DNA of 28,515 bases from an uncultured Dysgonomonadaceae bacterium (GTDB lineage: Bacteria; Bacteroidota; Bacteroidia; Bacteroidales; Dysgonomonadaceae). The stretch spans positions 1 to 28,515 of the forward strand of contig CAYTJC010000001.1 of assembly GCA_964437875.1 (NCBI GenBank), written 5' to 3'. Positions 4,605 through 21,677 of this stretch are shown here, piece by piece. How positions within the stretch are numbered: position 1 is the first letter of the stretch; each line of letters opens with the position of its first letter. The notes under the pieces are model-generated. The model ran no database searches. It saw nothing but the letters and a program-made list of their open reading frames with translations, and had not been told where the DNA came from. The translations under genes were made by a program, and so were the position numbers.

Positions 4605-5975
4605 ATGGCAAAACTAAAATCAGTATATTTCTGCAGCAGTTGCGGCAACGAATCACCCAAATGGATGGGCAAATGCCCTGCCTGTGGCGAGTGGGGTACA
4701 TTTGTAGAAGAGTTGATACGCAAAGAAACCGCAGCTGCAAAACAAGAAGACACCCGATCCTTTTCTTCTGGCAAGAACACTCCTCAACCCTTAAAAGATA
4801 TAAGAGCAGACGAAGAGCCTCGCATTGACATGCAGGACAATGAGTTGAACCGTGTGCTAGGTGGTGGTCTTGTACCTGCATCTTTGGTGCTTATTGGTGG
4901 CGAGCCTGGTATTGGCAAGTCAACATTAGTGCTGCAAACCATACTGAAACTACAATCCATCAAATCGCTCTACATTTCGGGCGAGGAGAGTGCAAGACAA
5001 TTAAAACTAAGAGCAGAACGCCTGAACATAGAAAACGACAACTGCCTCATAGTGTGTGAAACGAATCTCGATCATATTTTTGGTCACATCAAAAACACCA
5101 ATCCCCAGTTGGTGATTATCGATTCCATTCAAACCATGTATCTCGATTCTATGGAATCGTCTCCAGGCAGTATTTCGCAAGTACGCGAATGTGCTTCTGC
5201 GATACTTAAGTTTGCAAAACAATCGGGTATCCCTGTATTGATGGTAGGACATATCACCAAAGATGGCAGCATTGCAGGTCCCAAAGTTTTGGAACATATA
5301 GTAGACACAGTACTTCAATTTGAGGGAGACCAGCACTATATGTACAGAATACTGCGTAGCATAAAAAATCGCTTTGGTAGCACTGCAGAGTTGGGTATAT
5401 ACGAGATGATTCAATCGGGATTGCGCGAAGTGAGCAACCCATCGGAAATGTTGCTAACCAAGAACCACGAGGAACTAAGTGGATCAACTATTTCGGCTAC
5501 CATTGAAGGTGTTCGCCCTTTCTTAATTGAAACACAATCATTGGTAAGTTCTGCTGCTTATGGCAATCCACAACGATCGGCTACTGGTTTTGATATTCGC
5601 AGAATGAATATGCTACTCGCTGTATTGGAAAAACGTGCAGGTTTTAAATTAGCACAAAAAGATGTCTTTTTGAATATTGCAGGAGGACTCAAAATAAACG
5701 ACCCTGGCATGGACTTGTCGGTTATTAGCGCAGTGCTATCATCTAGTTTAGATATTGCAGTTGCCAAAGACACTTGTTTGGCTGGCGAGGTGGGTCTGTC
5801 GGGCGAGATTCGCCCTGTCAATCGAATTGAGCAACGCATCTTTGAAGCAGAAAAACTTGGTTTCTCGCGTATTATTGTACCCGACAATAACTTGAAGGGT
5901 TTCACATCTAAGGTATCCATCAAGATTGAAACAGTTCGGAAGGTAGAAGAGGCTTTTAGACTACTATTTTCTTAA
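4605..5975 (+). CDS. radA: DNA repair protein RadA/Sms
   Basis: C4 zinc finger (CSSC...CPAC), Walker A GEPGIGKS, Walker B VIIDS, KNRFG motif, Lon-like C-terminus. Start moved from TTG 4581, which lies inside the promoter box, to ATG 4605 (MAKLKSVYFC). Confidence 0.97.
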   Translation: MAKLKSVYFCSSCGNESPKWMGKCPACGEWGTFVEELIRKETAAAKQEDTRSFSSGKNTPQPLKDIRADEEPRIDMQDNELNRVLGGGLVPASLVLIGGEPGIGKSTLVLQTILKLQSIKSLYISGEESARQLKLRAERLNIENDNCLIVCETNLDHIFGHIKNTNPQLVIIDSIQTMYLDSMESSPGSISQVRECASAILKFAKQSGIPVLMVGHITKDGSIAGPKVLEHIVDTVLQFEGDQHYMYRILRSIKNRFGSTAELGIYEMIQSGLREVSNPSEMLLTKNHEELSGSTISATIEGVRPFLIETQSLVSSAAYGNPQRSATGFDIRRMNMLLAVLEKRAGFKLAQKDVFLNIAGGLKINDPGMDLSVISAVLSSSLDIAVAKDTCLAGEVGLSGEIRPVNRIEQRIFEAEKLGFSRIIVPDNNLKGFTSKVSIKIETVRKVEEAFRLLFS

Positions 5976-6056
5976 TCAAGGGAGCTATTACATCTAATTG
6001 ACTTCTTTTTTGAAGCAATATAATCGGTTATATTTTTTTTAATCTAAAAATAATAC

Positions 6057-6064
6057 TATCTTTG
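6057..6064 (+). promoter_or_regulatory. Bacteroidota sigma-A -7 box (TATCTTTG) for tRNA-Cys
   Basis: Exact TAnnTTTG followed by CA, 21 nt upstream of the tRNA 5' end. Confidence 0.65.
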
Positions 6065-6085
6065 CAACCGCTTTTCAAAAGCACT

Positions 6086-6156
6086 GGTACCTTGGCCGAG
6101 TGGTTAGGCAACGGTCTGCAAAACCGTGTACGGCGGTTCGAATCCGCCAGGTACCT
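6086..6156 (+). tRNA. tRNA-Cys (GCA)
   Basis: Acceptor stem GGTACCT/AGGTACC, D-stem GCC/GGC, anticodon arm ACGGT-CTGCAAA-ACCGT, T-arm GGCGG-TTCGAAT-CCGCC, discriminator U as expected for tRNA-Cys. CCA is not encoded. Confidence 0.98.
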
Positions 6157-6168
6157 CTCAAAATAGAT

Positions 6169-6218
6169 AAGTTCCAAAACATTGTTTAGTAAATAAACAG
6201 GTTTTGGAACTTTTTTTA
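6169..6218 (+). terminator. Rho-independent terminator-like hairpin after tRNA-Cys
   Basis: AAGTTCCAAAAC (6169-6180) pairs with GTTTTGGAACTT (6201-6212). Inner stem TGTTTA/TAAACA, followed by a T-run. Confidence 0.65.
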
Positions 6219-6435
6219 TTTAGTCATGCTGACTACTCTCCTTACTTTGCGCATATTATCATATTGCACACAAGAACTTTAGTTGTAAGTTTAGATTATT
6301 CTTAAACCCACCTTTCAATGCAGTCAGCAACCCTAGAAAAACATATTTATCCTCTCAAAGCGTTTAAACTGTTTGTAAATTCTACTTTTCGACCTCTTTT
6401 CACGTCCTACAAAGAGACAAAAAAGATTTTACTAC

Positions 6436-6722
6436 GATTGAGGCCTACAAAAGTTCAAATAAAAAATATTGGAGCTTTTGTAGTAGTACAAAACCGTAAA
6501 TAAAATATATTTGGACTTTCGGAGGGGTAAGAAACCACAAATAAAAGTTATTTGAACTTTCGGAGGGGTAAGAAACCACAAATAAAAGTTATTTGAACTT
6601 TCGGAGGGCTACGAAACCATGAATAAAAGTTATTGGAGCTTTTGTAGGGGTACAAAACCATAAATAAAATATATTGGGACTTTCGGAGGCCTACAACAAC
6701 GTAAATGAAAAAAAGCAAATAT
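6436..6722. repeat. Non-coding tandem array of 41-bp imperfect palindromic units (6 complete + 1 degenerate)
   Basis: Unit starts at 6436, 6477, 6518, 6559, 6600, 6641, 6682, an exact 41-bp phase. Units 3 and 4 are identical (TTCGGAGGGGTAAGAAACCACAAATAAAAGTTATTTGAACT); units 2 and 6 differ at 4 positions. Confidence 0.93.
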
Positions 6723-6904
6723 TTTGCAGCATTAATCTGGAATATATTACTTTTTGCAAGCAATCTATTTCTCATTTAACTAAAAACAGCTATCTTAGTT
6801 TTTTAGAAACAAAAATTTAGAATACACAATCAGAAACAACTACTTATTTGTGATAGCCCAAGTCTGTTGCAAGGAAAATGTAAGTAACCCAATAAATTCG
6901 AGAT

Positions 6905-9349
6905 ATGTCCGACTACTACCAACTAGCACATGAGTTTGCTATGCAAACCAACCAAGTAATTTTTATTACGGGAAAAGCAGGAACTGGAAAAACAACTTTC
7001 CTCAGAAAACTAAAAAACGAGAGCCTGAAGCAAACTGCTGTGGTAGCACCCACGGGCATAGCTGCTATAAATGCAGGCGGAACAACTATACATTCTTTCT
7101 TTCAATTGCCATTTGCACCCTTTGCTCCCACTCCTCCTGGACGTAAAGAGTTAATAAGCAAAATGAAAATGCAGAGCAACAGGCAGCAAATATTGCGAGA
7201 ACTAGAACTGCTAGTTATAGATGAGATAAGCATGGTGCGTGCAGATGTGTTAGATGCAATAGACACATTGTTGAGACACTACAGACGCAGAGACAATATT
7301 CCGTTTGGTGGAGTTCAAGTGATATTTATTGGTGACATGTTTCAACTTTCGCCTGTAGCAAAGCGAGAGGAGCTACAAATATTGCGAACCTTTTATGAAG
7401 GGATTCATTTTTTCGACAGCCACGTTATGCAGCAAGTTCCCCTAGTTTACATTGAACTAGACAAAGTGTTTAGACAGAAAAATGCCGACTTCATTCAAAT
7501 TCTGGACGAGGTAAGGCAAAATAAGCTTACACCTGAATCAGAAGCTAAACTACAAAGCACCTACAACCCCAACTTTGTGCCAAACAAAGATGAGCCTTAT
7601 GTAACACTCACAACGCACAACTATAAAGCAGATTTAATAAACAGTGCTGAGCTAAATAAAATTGAAGGAAAGTCTCGATGGTTTAAGGCTACCATAGAGG
7701 GAAGCTTTCCATCTGGCAGTTATCCTGTTGAAACAGACTTGGAACTGAAAAAAGGTGCAAAAGTGATGTTTGTAAAAAACGACACTGAGAATCCACGCAG
7801 ATTTTACAATGGCAAAATAGGCGAAATCACATTTATGGACGAAGACTATGTGATGGTTACCTGCCCAGGTGAAGAAAACGCGATTTATGTAGAATCTACA
7901 ACGTGGGAAAATATGACCTACAAAGTAAATAAAGAGACAACGGAACTAGAAGAGAAGCGAACAGGAAGTTTCACACAGATGCCTCTGAGACATGCTTGGG
8001 CCATCACTATTCACAAAAGTCAGGGTCTGACGTTTGACAAAGCAATAATTGATGCTGGTGATGCATTTGCTCCTGGTCAAGTGTATGTGGCACTCAGTAG
8101 ATGCAGAACCTTGGAAGGAATTGTACTAAAAAGCAAGATAAGTATAGACAGTATGCGCAATGAGTCTAACATACTCAAATTCTCTTCGCGCAAAAATGAG
8201 GCTGACGAACTCAACGAAAAACTAGAAGAGTCGCAAGTTGAATACCGTAAACAGTTATTGTTAGAACTGTTCGATTTTAATACGTTACAAAAAGTGATTG
8301 CTTATTTGAGAACTGATGTGAATAAAGCAGGAACATCGTTTAATGACGAAACAGGCCCATTCTTGGCAGAATTAACCCAGCAGACAAAAGAGATAAAAGA
8401 GGTGGCTGATAAATTCTCGGTGCAACTCATCCAAATTTTAAACAACCATCCTATTGACGAAACGTTGTTGCAAGAAAGACTTACAGCATCGTCACAATAC
8501 TTCTTTCAAAAACTGGATTACTTGCTAGAGCAAATTGCAGACTCTCCTGCCTATACAGACAACAAATCTCTTGCAAATTCGTATAACGATGATTTACATA
8601 ATGTCTATACACAAGCTGCACAGAAGAAGGAGTTTATATCTAAGCTAAAGCAAGAGTTTACAATTGAAAACTACTTTAAGTGGCGGAAAAACTTAGTAAT
8701 TAAACTACCCAAGTTGCAAACCCATGGCGGAAGTACCAGCAAATCTACAGTATCAATACATCCAGATTTGATGCAGCGGCTCTCAGAAATAAGAAACGAG
8801 TTGGCAAAAGAAAACGATGTGCCATTGTATATTGTTGCAGGAACAAAATCGTTGCAAGAACTAGCCGACTTTCTACCCCAAACACCCAAAGACTTTCTGT
8901 TGATATATGGATTTGGTAAAGTGAGAGTAGAAAAATATGGTAGCTACTTCTTAGATGAAATAAGAAAGTATTGCGAAGAGAAAAATCTAAAATCGCGGAT
9001 GCATGAAATAGAAGCTTCACACAAAAAAGAAGAGAAAGAAAAAAAGCCGAAGCAAGTAAAAGGTGCTAGCCAACAAGAGAGCTTAGAGCTATATAAATCA
9101 GGAAAGACAATTGAGGAAATAACCCAACTTCGTACCCTAAAAGAGAGCACAATTGCATCACACCTTAGTCAGTTTCTAAAAACGGGTGAGGTAAAGATTG
9201 AAGATTTTGTTTCAGAATCTAAAAAGGAAGAAGCGATAAAATTGATGGAGAAAAGCCCCAATCAATCTGCTTACAAAACTTTGCACACTTTTCTTGATAC
9301 TATAGAAATGACGTTTTTCACAGCCTGGTTGCGACTGCAAGATAAATAA
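6905..9349 (+). CDS. Pif1-like SF1B DNA helicase with C-terminal HRDC and helix-turn-helix domains
   Basis: GKAGTGKT, VVAPTGIAA, GGTTIHSFF, IDEISMV, GDMFQLSP, PLRHAWAITIHKSQGLT, YVALSRC. HRDC-like LSEIRNELAKENDVPLYIV...GFGKVRVEKYG. Terminal HTH (SLELYKSGKTIEEI...ESTIASHL). Confidence 0.88.
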   Translation: MSDYYQLAHEFAMQTNQVIFITGKAGTGKTTFLRKLKNESLKQTAVVAPTGIAAINAGGTTIHSFFQLPFAPFAPTPPGRKELISKMKMQSNRQQILRELELLVIDEISMVRADVLDAIDTLLRHYRRRDNIPFGGVQVIFIGDMFQLSPVAKREELQILRTFYEGIHFFDSHVMQQVPLVYIELDKVFRQKNADFIQILDEVRQNKLTPESEAKLQSTYNPNFVPNKDEPYVTLTTHNYKADLINSAELNKIEGKSRWFKATIEGSFPSGSYPVETDLELKKGAKVMFVKNDTENPRRFYNGKIGEITFMDEDYVMVTCPGEENAIYVESTTWENMTYKVNKETTELEEKRTGSFTQMPLRHAWAITIHKSQGLTFDKAIIDAGDAFAPGQVYVALSRCRTLEGIVLKSKISIDSMRNESNILKFSSRKNEADELNEKLEESQVEYRKQLLLELFDFNTLQKVIAYLRTDVNKAGTSFNDETGPFLAELTQQTKEIKEVADKFSVQLIQILNNHPIDETLLQERLTASSQYFFQKLDYLLEQIADSPAYTDNKSLANSYNDDLHNVYTQAAQKKEFISKLKQEFTIENYFKWRKNLVIKLPKLQTHGGSTSKSTVSIHPDLMQRLSEIRNELAKENDVPLYIVAGTKSLQELADFLPQTPKDFLLIYGFGKVRVEKYGSYFLDEIRKYCEEKNLKSRMHEIEASHKKEEKEKKPKQVKGASQQESLELYKSGKTIEEITQLRTLKESTIASHLSQFLKTGEVKIEDFVSESKKEEAIKLMEKSPNQSAYKTLHTFLDTIEMTFFTAWLRLQDK

Positions 9350-19544: not shown

Positions 19545-20051
19545 ATGCTTAAAAAATTAATTATCTTATTTTTTGCAATTGCACCTCTGGCACTTGTAGC
19601 TCAAGAGAGTAAAATTGCTTATATCAATTCGCAAGAAATATTTGCATTGATGCCTGAGTTATCAACAATTGAGACCCAACTTAGCACCAAGCAAGAACAA
19701 GTAAAGAAAAATGCTGCTGCATTAGAAAATGAGTACAACAACAAAATGGAGGAATTTCAAAAATCTGCTGATGAAGTTACTGAGTCTATATTGATGGACC
19801 GTCAGAAACAAATTCAGCAAATTGAAGAAAGATACCAAGCTTTTATGCAAAACAGCCAAAAAGAAATTCAAGAGATGCAACAAAAATTAGTTGCTCCAGT
19901 GCAAGAGAAACTGCAGAAAGCAATTAAAGATGTTGGTGAAGAAAAAGGATACACTTACATATTAGATTACGCTTCAGGATCTATAGCATATAATAGCCCA
20001 ACAGCAATAAATGCTGGTCCATTAGTAAAAGCTAAATTAGGTATCAACTAA
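19545..20051 (+). CDS. skp: OmpH/Skp periplasmic chaperone (second paralog)
   Basis: Signal peptide, KIAYINSQEIF..MPE, coiled coil, AIKDVGEEKGYTYILD, VKAKLGI. Confidence 0.92.
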   Translation: MLKKLIILFFAIAPLALVAQESKIAYINSQEIFALMPELSTIETQLSTKQEQVKKNAAALENEYNNKMEEFQKSADEVTESILMDRQKQIQQIEERYQAFMQNSQKEIQEMQQKLVAPVQEKLQKAIKDVGEEKGYTYILDYASGSIAYNSPTAINAGPLVKAKLGIN

Positions 20052-20091
20052 AACTATATTATCGCATAGACGATAGACTTATAAATGATAT

Positions 20092-20126
20092 AAAAAAGAC
20101 GACAAATTTAATTTGTCGTCTTTTTT
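20092..20126. terminator. Strong Rho-independent terminator after skp
   Basis: Perfect 16-bp inverted repeat AAAAAAGACGACAAAT-TTA-ATTTGTCGTCTTTTTT. Confidence 0.85.
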
Positions 20127-20379
20127 CATCTTAATATCCGAAGAGTTTCTAGACATGAACAGCAAAGCTCTGCGTTTTTAGTTCAATTCTCACCAGTTAC
20201 AAGTTTTTTGATTTTATATCTGTCGTTAGCAAACTCTATTTTTTTATTCAAGATTCAAATTGCATTTCCACGTAATGTCAATTTGTAAATAATATGTGGT
20301 TGTTTTTTACAATTCACCCTAAAATGTGCCCTATAACAGGTAGAAATCAAATCTTATACCTACAATTAAACGTTCATCT

Positions 20380-20418
20380 GTTGAAAACAGAATCTACAGA
20401 CGTAGAAATGTTTTCAAC
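20380..20418. repeat. 39-bp imperfect palindrome
   Basis: GTTGAAAACA (20380-20389) pairs with TGTTTTCAAC (20409-20418), enclosing TCTAC-AGAC-GTAGA. Confidence 0.6.
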
Positions 20419-20626
20419 TGCAGAAAACAGCTCTTTTTAAGGCTATTATTAAAGATAATCGTGTGAAAGGTGAAAAAACAACCTAAGATTTAAGAATCTA
20501 CTTATAAATAGAAAATCTTACGACGAAAACGGGCTTTTTATAGTGTGAAAACCCAATAAATTGGCAACAAAACAAGATTTATACGATTTCAAACATATTG
20601 TAGGCTGTGGATGCAAGTTTCAACTG

Positions 20627-20663
20627 TTTCAAACATTTTTGTAGGGGTACAAAATGTTTGAAA
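20627..20663. repeat. 37-bp near-perfect palindrome sharing its 18-bp core with the 41-bp array
   Basis: TTTCAAACATTTTTGTA-GGGG-TACAAAATGTTTGAAA (one bulged T). The core TTTTGTAGGGGTACAAAA at 20637-20654 is identical to 6640-6657. Confidence 0.8.
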
Positions 20664-20882
20664 AAAGATATATCATCTTACAATATACAATTAATTTAGA
20701 GTGTGAAGTAAAATACAAAACTATAACAAAGTTATGTCTAAAATCTGATATAAGTGCTGTAAAAAAAGGATCGTAGATTTATTTTCTTAATAAATATTGT
20801 TGACACTAAATACACCAAATACAAATCTACTAAAATAGAAGGTTTTTTGTATCTTGCAGCAAATTAATAATTGTATCATAAG

Positions 20883-21677
20883 ATGGATTTATCATACTTC
20901 AAAAGTGAAACGTTTTTCTTACTGGCAGGACCTTGCGTAATAGAAAACGAAGAGATGGCACTCGAAATTGCTAAAAAGATTATAACAATAACCAACAAAC
21001 TTAGCATTCCCTTTGCTTTCAAAGGATCATATCGAAAAGCAAATAGATCACGTGTAGATTCTTTTACAGGAATTGGTGATGAGAAAGCTCTAAAGATATT
21101 ACGTAAAGTAGCCACAACATTCAACATACCTGTTGTGACTGACATTCACGAATCGCATGAAGCTGCAATGGTAGCCGAATATGCCGATATACTTCAGATT
21201 CCAGCATTCTTATGTCGTCAGACAGAGCTACTGGTCGCAGCAGCCAAAACTGGCAAGATTGTAAATATAAAGAAAGGACAATTTCTTTCGGCAGAAAGTA
21301 TGCAGTTTGCTGCACAAAAGGTGGTGGACTCGGGCAACAGCAATGTGATGCTCACAGAAAGAGGAACATCTTTTGGGTACAACGATTTGGTGGTAGATTA
21401 TCGCGGTATTCCTACTATGAAAAAGTTTGGCTTCCCTGTGGTGATGGATGTTACACATAGCTTGCAACAGCCCAATCAATCATCGGGAGTGACAGGTGGA
21501 CAACCTGAACTGATTGAAACAATTTCTAAAGCAGCTATTGCAGTTGGTGCAGACGGTCTGTTTATCGAAACACATCCTAATCCTTCAATTGCTAAATCTG
21601 ACGGTGCAAACATGTTACCCCTCGATCAATTGGAAGCATTGCTAAAAAAACTTGTTGCACTTCGCCAAGCGTTATGA
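20883..21677 (+). CDS. kdsA: KDO8P synthase (2-dehydro-3-deoxyphosphooctonate aldolase), metal-dependent type
   Basis: AGPCVIE (Cys marks the metal-dependent class), KGSYRKANRSR, LQIPAFLCRQT, NIKKGQFLS, TERG..FGYNDLVVD, DVTHSLQ, FIETHPNP..AKSDG. ATG 20883 is preferred to TTG 20871. Confidence 0.96.
   Translation: MDLSYFKSETFFLLAGPCVIENEEMALEIAKKIITITNKLSIPFAFKGSYRKANRSRVDSFTGIGDEKALKILRKVATTFNIPVVTDIHESHEAAMVAEYADILQIPAFLCRQTELLVAAAKTGKIVNIKKGQFLSAESMQFAAQKVVDSGNSNVMLTERGTSFGYNDLVVDYRGIPTMKKFGFPVVMDVTHSLQQPNQSSGVTGGQPELIETISKAAIAVGADGLFIETHPNPSIAKSDGANMLPLDQLEALLKKLVALRQAL

Follow-up and report, generated by a model that had tools for sequence, protein, structure and literature searches.

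A dispersed intergenic repeat of six phased 41-bp palindromic units, probably a MITE-like element, in an uncultured member of the Bacteroidota

The palindromic 41-bp array downstream of a tRNA-Cys gene is best understood as a copy of a MITE-like, minisatellite-bearing selfish repeat, a reading to which we assign a probability of about 0.6. The genome has at least six copies of equal size and, in all, some 55 arrays of the same 40–43-bp period; the array hence represents a new repeat family, not a regulator confined to one locus. Several of the properties by which prokaryotic MITEs are recognised are present: a length of about 310 bp, within the range of 50–1000 bp, no coding capacity, several dispersed copies with unique flanks (six), and terminal inverted repeats, imperfect and about 30 nt long, in 6 out of 6 copies. 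It forms a new family within a kind of repeats that is known but unexplained. The window, i.e., the whole stretch of 28,515 nucleotides analysed here, belongs to a 2.3-Mb MAG of 480 contigs that is 81% complete (G000).

The array had been described, in a preliminary description made from the letters alone, as seven 41-bp units at an exact period without indels. The phasing withstood scrutiny: TRF called a period of 41 at 6457–6689 (5.7 copies, 83% matches), the sole long-period array across the whole window, as well as an indel-free higher-order period of 82 bp at 6456–6693 (2.9 copies, score 329), and a repeat search in the window returned five gap-free 123-nt copies at spacings of 41, 41, 41 and 41. 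The count, however, had to be revised to six full units, 244 bp in all, plus two diverged inverted end segments, the whole window copy (about 6413–6720) being a body between imperfect inverted ends (Table 1). The 82-bp period arises because units with a TTTTGTA core are interspersed within the body with units carrying a TTTCGGA core; four units of the window copy belong to the TTTCGGAGG subtype.

Table 1. Coordinates of the array, its parts, its neighbours in the window, and the array loci of the distant MAG.
Feature	Position	Strand	Basis or remark
tRNA-Cys (GCA), upstream neighbour, outside the element	6086..6157	+	ARAGORN; Rfam tRNA, 65.7 bits
Hairpin followed by T-run	6166..6216	+	Direct reading; hairpin kept in five relatives of the genus
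Left inverted end segment, diverged in the window copy	6413..6444		Left ends aligned with reverse-complemented right ends, six copies
Array body, 244 bp, six 41-bp units, two inverted 19-nt arms each	6445..6688
Perfect core palindrome TTTTGTA-N4-TACAAAA	6476..6493
Two identical adjacent units; short-read contigs break there	6518..6599		Contig pieces stop at 6544 and restart at 6579
Second perfect core palindrome	6640..6657		Same 18-mer also at 20637–20654
Right inverted end segment	6689..6720		Left ends aligned with reverse-complemented right ends, six copies
Downstream neighbour, outside the element: Pif1-like helicase (domains HRDC and HTH_40)	6905..9349	+	Pfam PF05970, 1.4e-32
Array loci of the distant MAG	G067:C87:2838-3296; G067:C204:17060-17276; G067:C79:3394-4057

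Other elements of that description proved accurate. The proposed anatomy of two 19-nt arms and a 3-nt linker is borne out by the complementarity between arms, which averages 11.7 of 19 positions over the six units, compared with 5.2 ± 0.8 in 2000 shuffles, whose maximum was 8.2 of 19. Direct reading reproduced the 17 of 19 identities between the arm at 6444–6462 and the reverse complement of 6548–6566, the two perfect 7-4-7 cores, the recurrence of block 6467–6525 at 6631–6689 (with 4 mismatches), and the bracketing of the array by GAGGCCTACAA at 6440 and 6686; the tRNA-Cys gene said to precede the array was found there by ARAGORN. The units are imperfect palindromes, each formed from the core CTTTTGTA-N4-TACAAAAC and an A/T-rich second dyad; the alternating orientation of the arms places a dyad axis every 20.5 bp. 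Both the core (TTTTGTA/TACAAAA) and an AAATAA/TATT module are 90–100% conserved, with a variable segment between them. Open reading frames across the element are only short and spurious, the period of 41 bp is, as had been pointed out, no multiple of 3, and the reported lack of unique spacers holds, with units that abut and every part of the unit repeated, which led us to reject a CRISPR array.

The scan of the genome with a unit profile that had been recommended was performed with nhmmer and recovered the same array on contigs C163, C87, C96, C110 and C254, along with diverged arrays on C261, C34 and C122. A lack of homologous sites elsewhere had been named among the grounds for abandoning the preliminary description; such sites exist at no fewer than five other loci in the genome. 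The six close copies (that of the window and those of the five contigs) share a mean pairwise identity of about 77% and align without any indel, the distance from the first to the last CTACAAAAG-type core is exactly 244 bp in all six, and sequence lying farther than about 30 nt from this span is single-copy. In each copy, the left end resembles the reverse complement of the right end over about 30 nt, most weakly in the window copy; the element is therefore about 310 bp long and consists of an end, six 41-bp units and a second end. Units resemble each other by position when all of them are compared (p < 0.0002), with p = 0.08 once the end units are set aside, so that the case for copying of the element as a whole rests on equal length and shared ends.

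The neighbours of the six copies are unrelated housekeeping genes with no common theme (acyltransferase, GHMP kinase, S41 peptidase, TrpA, AI-2E transporter, MscS, RadA, Pif1 helicase and tRNA-Cys), and the copies lie in either orientation relative to them. Neither par genes or regulators nor a transposase was found next to any of the six. No direct repeat of the kind left by target-site duplication occurs at the ends of any copy, the boundaries being known to within a few bases. A profile of the ends, used to search the 81%-complete assembly, in which IS elements often go unassembled, and the fetched loci, matched arrays only and yielded no autonomous partner with the same ends, and plasmid and phage collections searched with the array gave no match.

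On this evidence, we envisage that the element would have been copied whole into several intergenic spacers and would then have accumulated only substitutions. It might be moved in trans by some enzyme whose substrate would be either the inverted ends or hairpins formed by single-stranded DNA. The 20.5/41-bp lattice, which corresponds to about two and four helical turns, could be kept by a need of the mobilising machinery or of a host DNA-binding protein, or might be kept simply by descent from a common 41–42-bp ancestor. Besides the lack of target-site repeats, of an autonomous partner and of ends like those of the Porphyromonas MITEs, two observations weigh against this reading. The copies are old (about 77% identity) and show no sign of recent movement, and the absence of indels together with a single period in unrelated families points to a constraint on length, which pure selfishness would leave unexplained.

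An artefact of assembly, which the preliminary description had listed among the outcomes that would undo it, is excluded by the metagenomes: both junctions and parts of the array recur with 0 mismatches in contigs of four metagenomes from four studies. The number of units at the identical pair at 6518–6599 lies beyond the reach of short metagenome contigs, and one low-depth contig in one metagenome hints at an extra unit. Joints within contigs that skip 131, 192, 419 or 551 bp, or in one case step back by 41 bp, are anchored by 21–61 nt and may stem from paralogues or other strains. Neither the left junction nor a pair of cores spaced 41 bp apart gave a match in two scans of metagenome contigs. 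Neutral local slippage, or an artefact, private to this locus is scarcely credible: identical adjacent units are what a recent duplication would leave, and the low-depth contig would agree with it, but the same six-unit element stands at five other loci, relatives occur across the genus, and the junctions and interior are reproduced by independent metagenomes.

The search of relatives that had been suggested, carried out by BLAST with the array, gave matches in 9 of 12 other members of the genus, whereas 28 genomes from other genera and families had none. Contig ends account for many of the matches, which is expected where a repeat interrupts assembly. At the locus orthologous to the copy on C110, the spacer of one relative (G001) is about 320 bp shorter and lacks the element and that of another (G009) holds a related array of the TTTCGGAGG subtype; both spacers are too diverged to align, and no precise empty site can be defined. 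An exact search for the 20-nt core across 185,579 species genomes uncovered one further genome, a MAG titled 'Cytophagales bacterium' (G067), whose RadA reaches only 58% identity, where values of 93% and 75% hold for the genus and the family, respectively. This MAG has 41-bp arrays of 5 to 16 units at no fewer than five loci, with an identical 20-nt core and a different, GC-richer linker. Such a combination fits horizontal spread of a mobile element, although a strong constraint on the core would also account for its identity. Two of the loci of this MAG (C87 and C204) also have leader and tail sequence of about 100 nt in common, as in BrickBuilt. Pairs of cores 40–43 bp apart occur once in 400 genomes chosen as an even sample of the phylum, as against 39 times in the present genome.

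The array belongs to a wider class. Across the whole assembly, TRF detected a marked surplus of periods on one lattice, with 35 arrays at a period of 41–43, 13 at 80–84 and 5 at 123, and a secondary peak of 21 short arrays at period 21, the adjoining periods 20 and 22 having 3 and 1, respectively. The secondary peak fits a 21/42-bp lattice, and some of these short arrays may be coding heptad repeats. Reselection by period yielded 55 arrays of 40–43 bp, which total 11.6 kb (0.5% of the assembly) and were grouped by BLAST into 21 families, in part linked to one another through weak similarity; 54 of the 64 arrays with a period of at least 30 bp lie on the 40–43-bp lattice or its multiples. The 40–43-bp arrays are almost all intergenic, with no preference for a type of spacer (tandem:divergent:convergent 13:6:4; background 607:169:142). 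A short hairpin is present in most units, and TTTTGT...ACAAAA is common to many arrays. A 99% complete genome of the same genus (G004) has 12 such arrays in 356 kb, and the complete genome of a member of another genus of the family (G023) has one weak case in 400 kb. An association with tRNA genes was considered and dropped, as just 2 arrays genome-wide are near one. A link to HU was dropped as well, as no array follows any of the three HU genes.

A second dispersed non-coding element, about 391 nt long, is present in at least 22 copies in the genome, one of them at 20272–20668 of the window and others on contigs C4, C19, C23, C29, C57, C183, C306 and elsewhere. Its mean identity is 72%, yet 19 of 20 copies measure 384–393 nt. 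It closes with the 18-bp core of the array, in a hairpin with 16–18-bp arms on TTTTGTAGGCCTACAAAA, and shows autocorrelation peaks at lags of 41, 82 and 123, which give it the look of a degenerate 41-nt array. Rfam has no match for it (19900–21000 searched), its consensus fold is weak, and most copies (12 of 16) follow a gene that points the same way. The element is restricted to the genus, with at least 16 matches each in four relatives (G004, G005, G010 and G012). Each of the 15 exact cores outside TRF-called arrays sits in this element or in arrays at contig ends, and no stand-alone core outside repeat elements was found in the genome. Also in the window, at 20092–20126, lies a perfect hairpin with a 15-bp stem between an A-run and a T-run, which has the shape of a bidirectional terminator and matches the terminator portion of CsrC below the threshold, without being a Csr RNA.

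The spacer between the tRNA-Cys and helicase genes differs from relative to relative. In orthologous spacers, one genome (G007) has 279 bp and no array, another (G012) a related array, two (G001 and G011) tandem arrays of about 41–42-bp period and unrelated sequence, and a fifth (G010) a copy of the 391-nt element; judged by these comparisons, the spacer is a hot spot for repeats of the 41-bp class. The hairpin and T-run that follow the tRNA gene are probably its intrinsic terminator, so that the array would lie outside the tRNA transcript. At 6770–6805, some 100 nt ahead of the helicase gene, stands TCTCATTTAACTAAAAAC-N-CTATCTTAG with a T-run after it. Nearly all relatives of the genus keep this motif even though the rest of the spacer is unalignable, and it is likely a regulatory or terminator-like hairpin of the helicase locus.

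Several other readings of the array deserve consideration. An unlikely one, in line with the cooperative protein-binding array favoured in the preliminary description, is a phased protein-binding lattice, on which one dimer would occupy each dyad and a host or element-encoded protein would polymerise along one face of the helix, in a nucleoid-organising or sopC-like role. It would accommodate the exact 41-bp phase and the 244-bp body, both kept free of indels although the six copies are only about 77% identical, the 90–100% conservation of the core and the AAATAA/TATT module on either side of a variable segment, the survival of core and period in a distant lineage whose linker was replaced, and the common 40–43-bp period of some 55 arrays of unrelated sequence. 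Precedents can be cited as well, since polymerisation of a protein has been proposed for constant-size repeats (PMC8161180), and sopC of the F plasmid has the same architecture, with 12 × 43 bp and an inverted repeat in each (PMC3177203). Yet no candidate protein was found, nor par genes or regulators beside any copy; 20 or more sequence families would demand many proteins or a reader of DNA shape; the arrays follow no rule of position or orientation relative to genes; the core is never a lone promoter site, all 15 cores outside the TRF-called arrays lying in repeat elements; and arrays are gained or lost between species at the same spacer.

Overall, from the sequence comparisons at hand, a functional lattice for phased binding appears rather improbable. 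There is a small but real chance that the 20.5/41-bp dyad lattice serves a function in that a dimeric DNA-binding or hairpin-recognising protein of this lineage assembles on whatever sequence has dyads every two helical turns. If so, unit size would be under selection, which would explain the roughly 55 unrelated arrays at 40–43 bp, the indel-free copies at 77% identity and the constant length of the 391-nt element at 72%, and would open a way into the mechanism behind the enigmatic 'constant size, variable sequence' repeats of bacteria. An operator or centromere specific to this locus is a different matter: against it speak the spread over at least six loci, whose neighbours are unrelated and include no par genes, the unrelated families at the same period and the core that never occurs alone outside repeat elements. 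A promoter was also considered and rejected. The Bacteroidetes promoter consensus is TAnnTTTG with TTTG 19–21 nt upstream; some units carry TATATTTG, which conforms to TAnnTTTG, but their nearest TTTG is 25 nt upstream.

We regard a non-coding RNA of tandem hairpins, for instance a protein sponge or a processed array, as very unlikely. Both strands fold far better than shuffles (z = -4.05 and -4.06), although this is what any palindromic DNA yields. One position of the stem reads T-A 23 times, T-G 9 times, C-G 3 times and C-A once, which looks like a compensatory path by way of wobble pairs; two of the three C-G pairs, however, belong to one duplicated unit, leaving few independent events, and covariation of arm versus arm is non-significant in both registers (p = 0.08 and 0.97). 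No Rfam family covers the array, the best score over it in a search of 5500–7500 being 21.5 bits against a cut-off of 80; over this region and 19900–21000, Rfam returned only the tRNA and a terminator-like hairpin, and just the tRNA passes. Furthermore, the hairpins lack a U-tract, what is probably a canonical terminator intervenes between tRNA-Cys and array, and copies occur in either orientation relative to their neighbours.

The preliminary description had offered a REP/BIME- or MITE-like repeat as its alternative. This has stood insofar as the element is dispersed, bounded by ends and restricted to the genus; its REP/BIME component did not pass the defining test, that of a RAYT. An element of this type would be moved by a RAYT, a REP-associated Y1 transposase, cutting at GTAG beside a single-stranded hairpin, as in the link between GTAG-tagged REPs and RAYTs described previously (PMC3733652), and we consider it most unlikely here. 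GTAG (CTAC on the other strand) is found at the core of most units, the arms alternate in orientation like REPs in BIMEs, and the genome does encode one RAYT-like protein (C101:3906-4457, PF01797, 33.9 bits), with GTAG-tagged palindromes on the flanks of its gene. Those palindromes are nevertheless a different, GC-rich sequence of about a dozen copies, and no homologue of the gene was found in G004 (99% complete) or G001 (98%), both of which carry 41–42-bp arrays. Conversely, homologues occur in eight genomes from seven other genera of the family, and the array BLAST was empty in the five of these that it covered. GTAG is situated at the top of the hairpin, compared with the foot in canonical REPs, and is absent from many array families of the genome. 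At the RAYT locus, C101:2826-4660 forms a REPtron-like unit: clusters of the GC-rich GTAG-tagged palindrome CGCTACCGCGCGAATCTTTCGCGTGG stand on either side of the minus-strand gene for a 183-aa Y1 transposase of RAYT type, with a few others on C30, C77 and C120. This unit bears no relation to the 41-bp arrays.

The MITE-like reading may be set beside the known repeats of bacteria. MIRU/VNTR loci of Mycobacterium are, like the arrays here, dispersed intergenic minisatellites, with units of 40–100 bp at tens of loci. MIRUs differ from the present element in that they are not palindromic, contain varying numbers of units and frequently extend over the stop and start codons of genes in operons. 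The sopC centromere likewise consists of approximately 43-bp direct repeats without spacers, each containing an inverted repeat (PMC3177203). In contrast, the element described here is chromosomal, has no sopAB/parAB neighbour, and is accompanied by dozens of unrelated arrays of the same period; with no adjacent partition genes, and at least six loci instead of one per replicon, a centromere of the sopC/parS type was rejected. REP/BIME elements, too, are extragenic imperfect palindromes in alternating orientation, which form regular clusters, carry GTAG and are lineage-specific (PMC3733652). Unlike these, the repeats here are exact tandems with a fixed number of units, inverted ends, GTAG in the top of the hairpin and no link to the RAYT of the genome.

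Among the closest likenesses are MITEs of Porphyromonas. In P. gingivalis, BrickBuilt is a MITE with a 23-nt minisatellite, MITE464/PgRS contains 41-nt tandem direct repeats, and both have IS5-like ends; the paper describing MITE464/PgRS found no BLAST matches outside P. gingivalis (PMC4596501). Similarly to the element described here, these MITEs are non-coding, strictly intergenic, present in 10–20 copies per genome and found in Bacteroidota (PMC4596501), and consist of a spacer-free head-to-tail repeat framed by end segments with inverted repeats. By the published description, MITE464/PgRS and the window element have the same unit length, 41 nt. On the other hand, the ends of the Porphyromonas MITEs are of IS5 type (GAGAC...), a motif absent from the ends here, for which no cognate IS was found, and their units are not palindromes. 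BrickBuilt copies also vary in the number of units, whereas all six copies here are equal.

To our knowledge, bacterial tandem repeats of fixed unit size and unrelated sequence have been catalogued and never explained. The present genus provides internal controls, namely six paralogous copies, a degenerate 391-nt relative and a distant lineage with a changed linker, which make pull-down, phase-shift and cruciform experiments well defined. In practical terms, the repeats break short-read assemblies of the group, with many arrays at contig ends, and are candidate loci for strain typing. Subirana and Messeguer reported bacterial tandem repeats of constant size and variable sequence, only of 20–21 and 52 nt, and proposed a protein whose polymerisation would require a constant size (PMC8161180). 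As in their case, many families of the same length and unrelated sequences coexist in one genome, mostly in intergenic regions; the sizes differ, being 20–21 or 52 nt there and 40–43 bp, with multiples of 82–84 and 123, here. Given the alternating arms and the minor peak at 21 bp, the 40–43-bp size may be a doubled 20.5-bp lattice. The genus hence emerges as a dense case, with about 0.5% of the genome occupied, at 40–43 bp, a size absent from the published catalogue.
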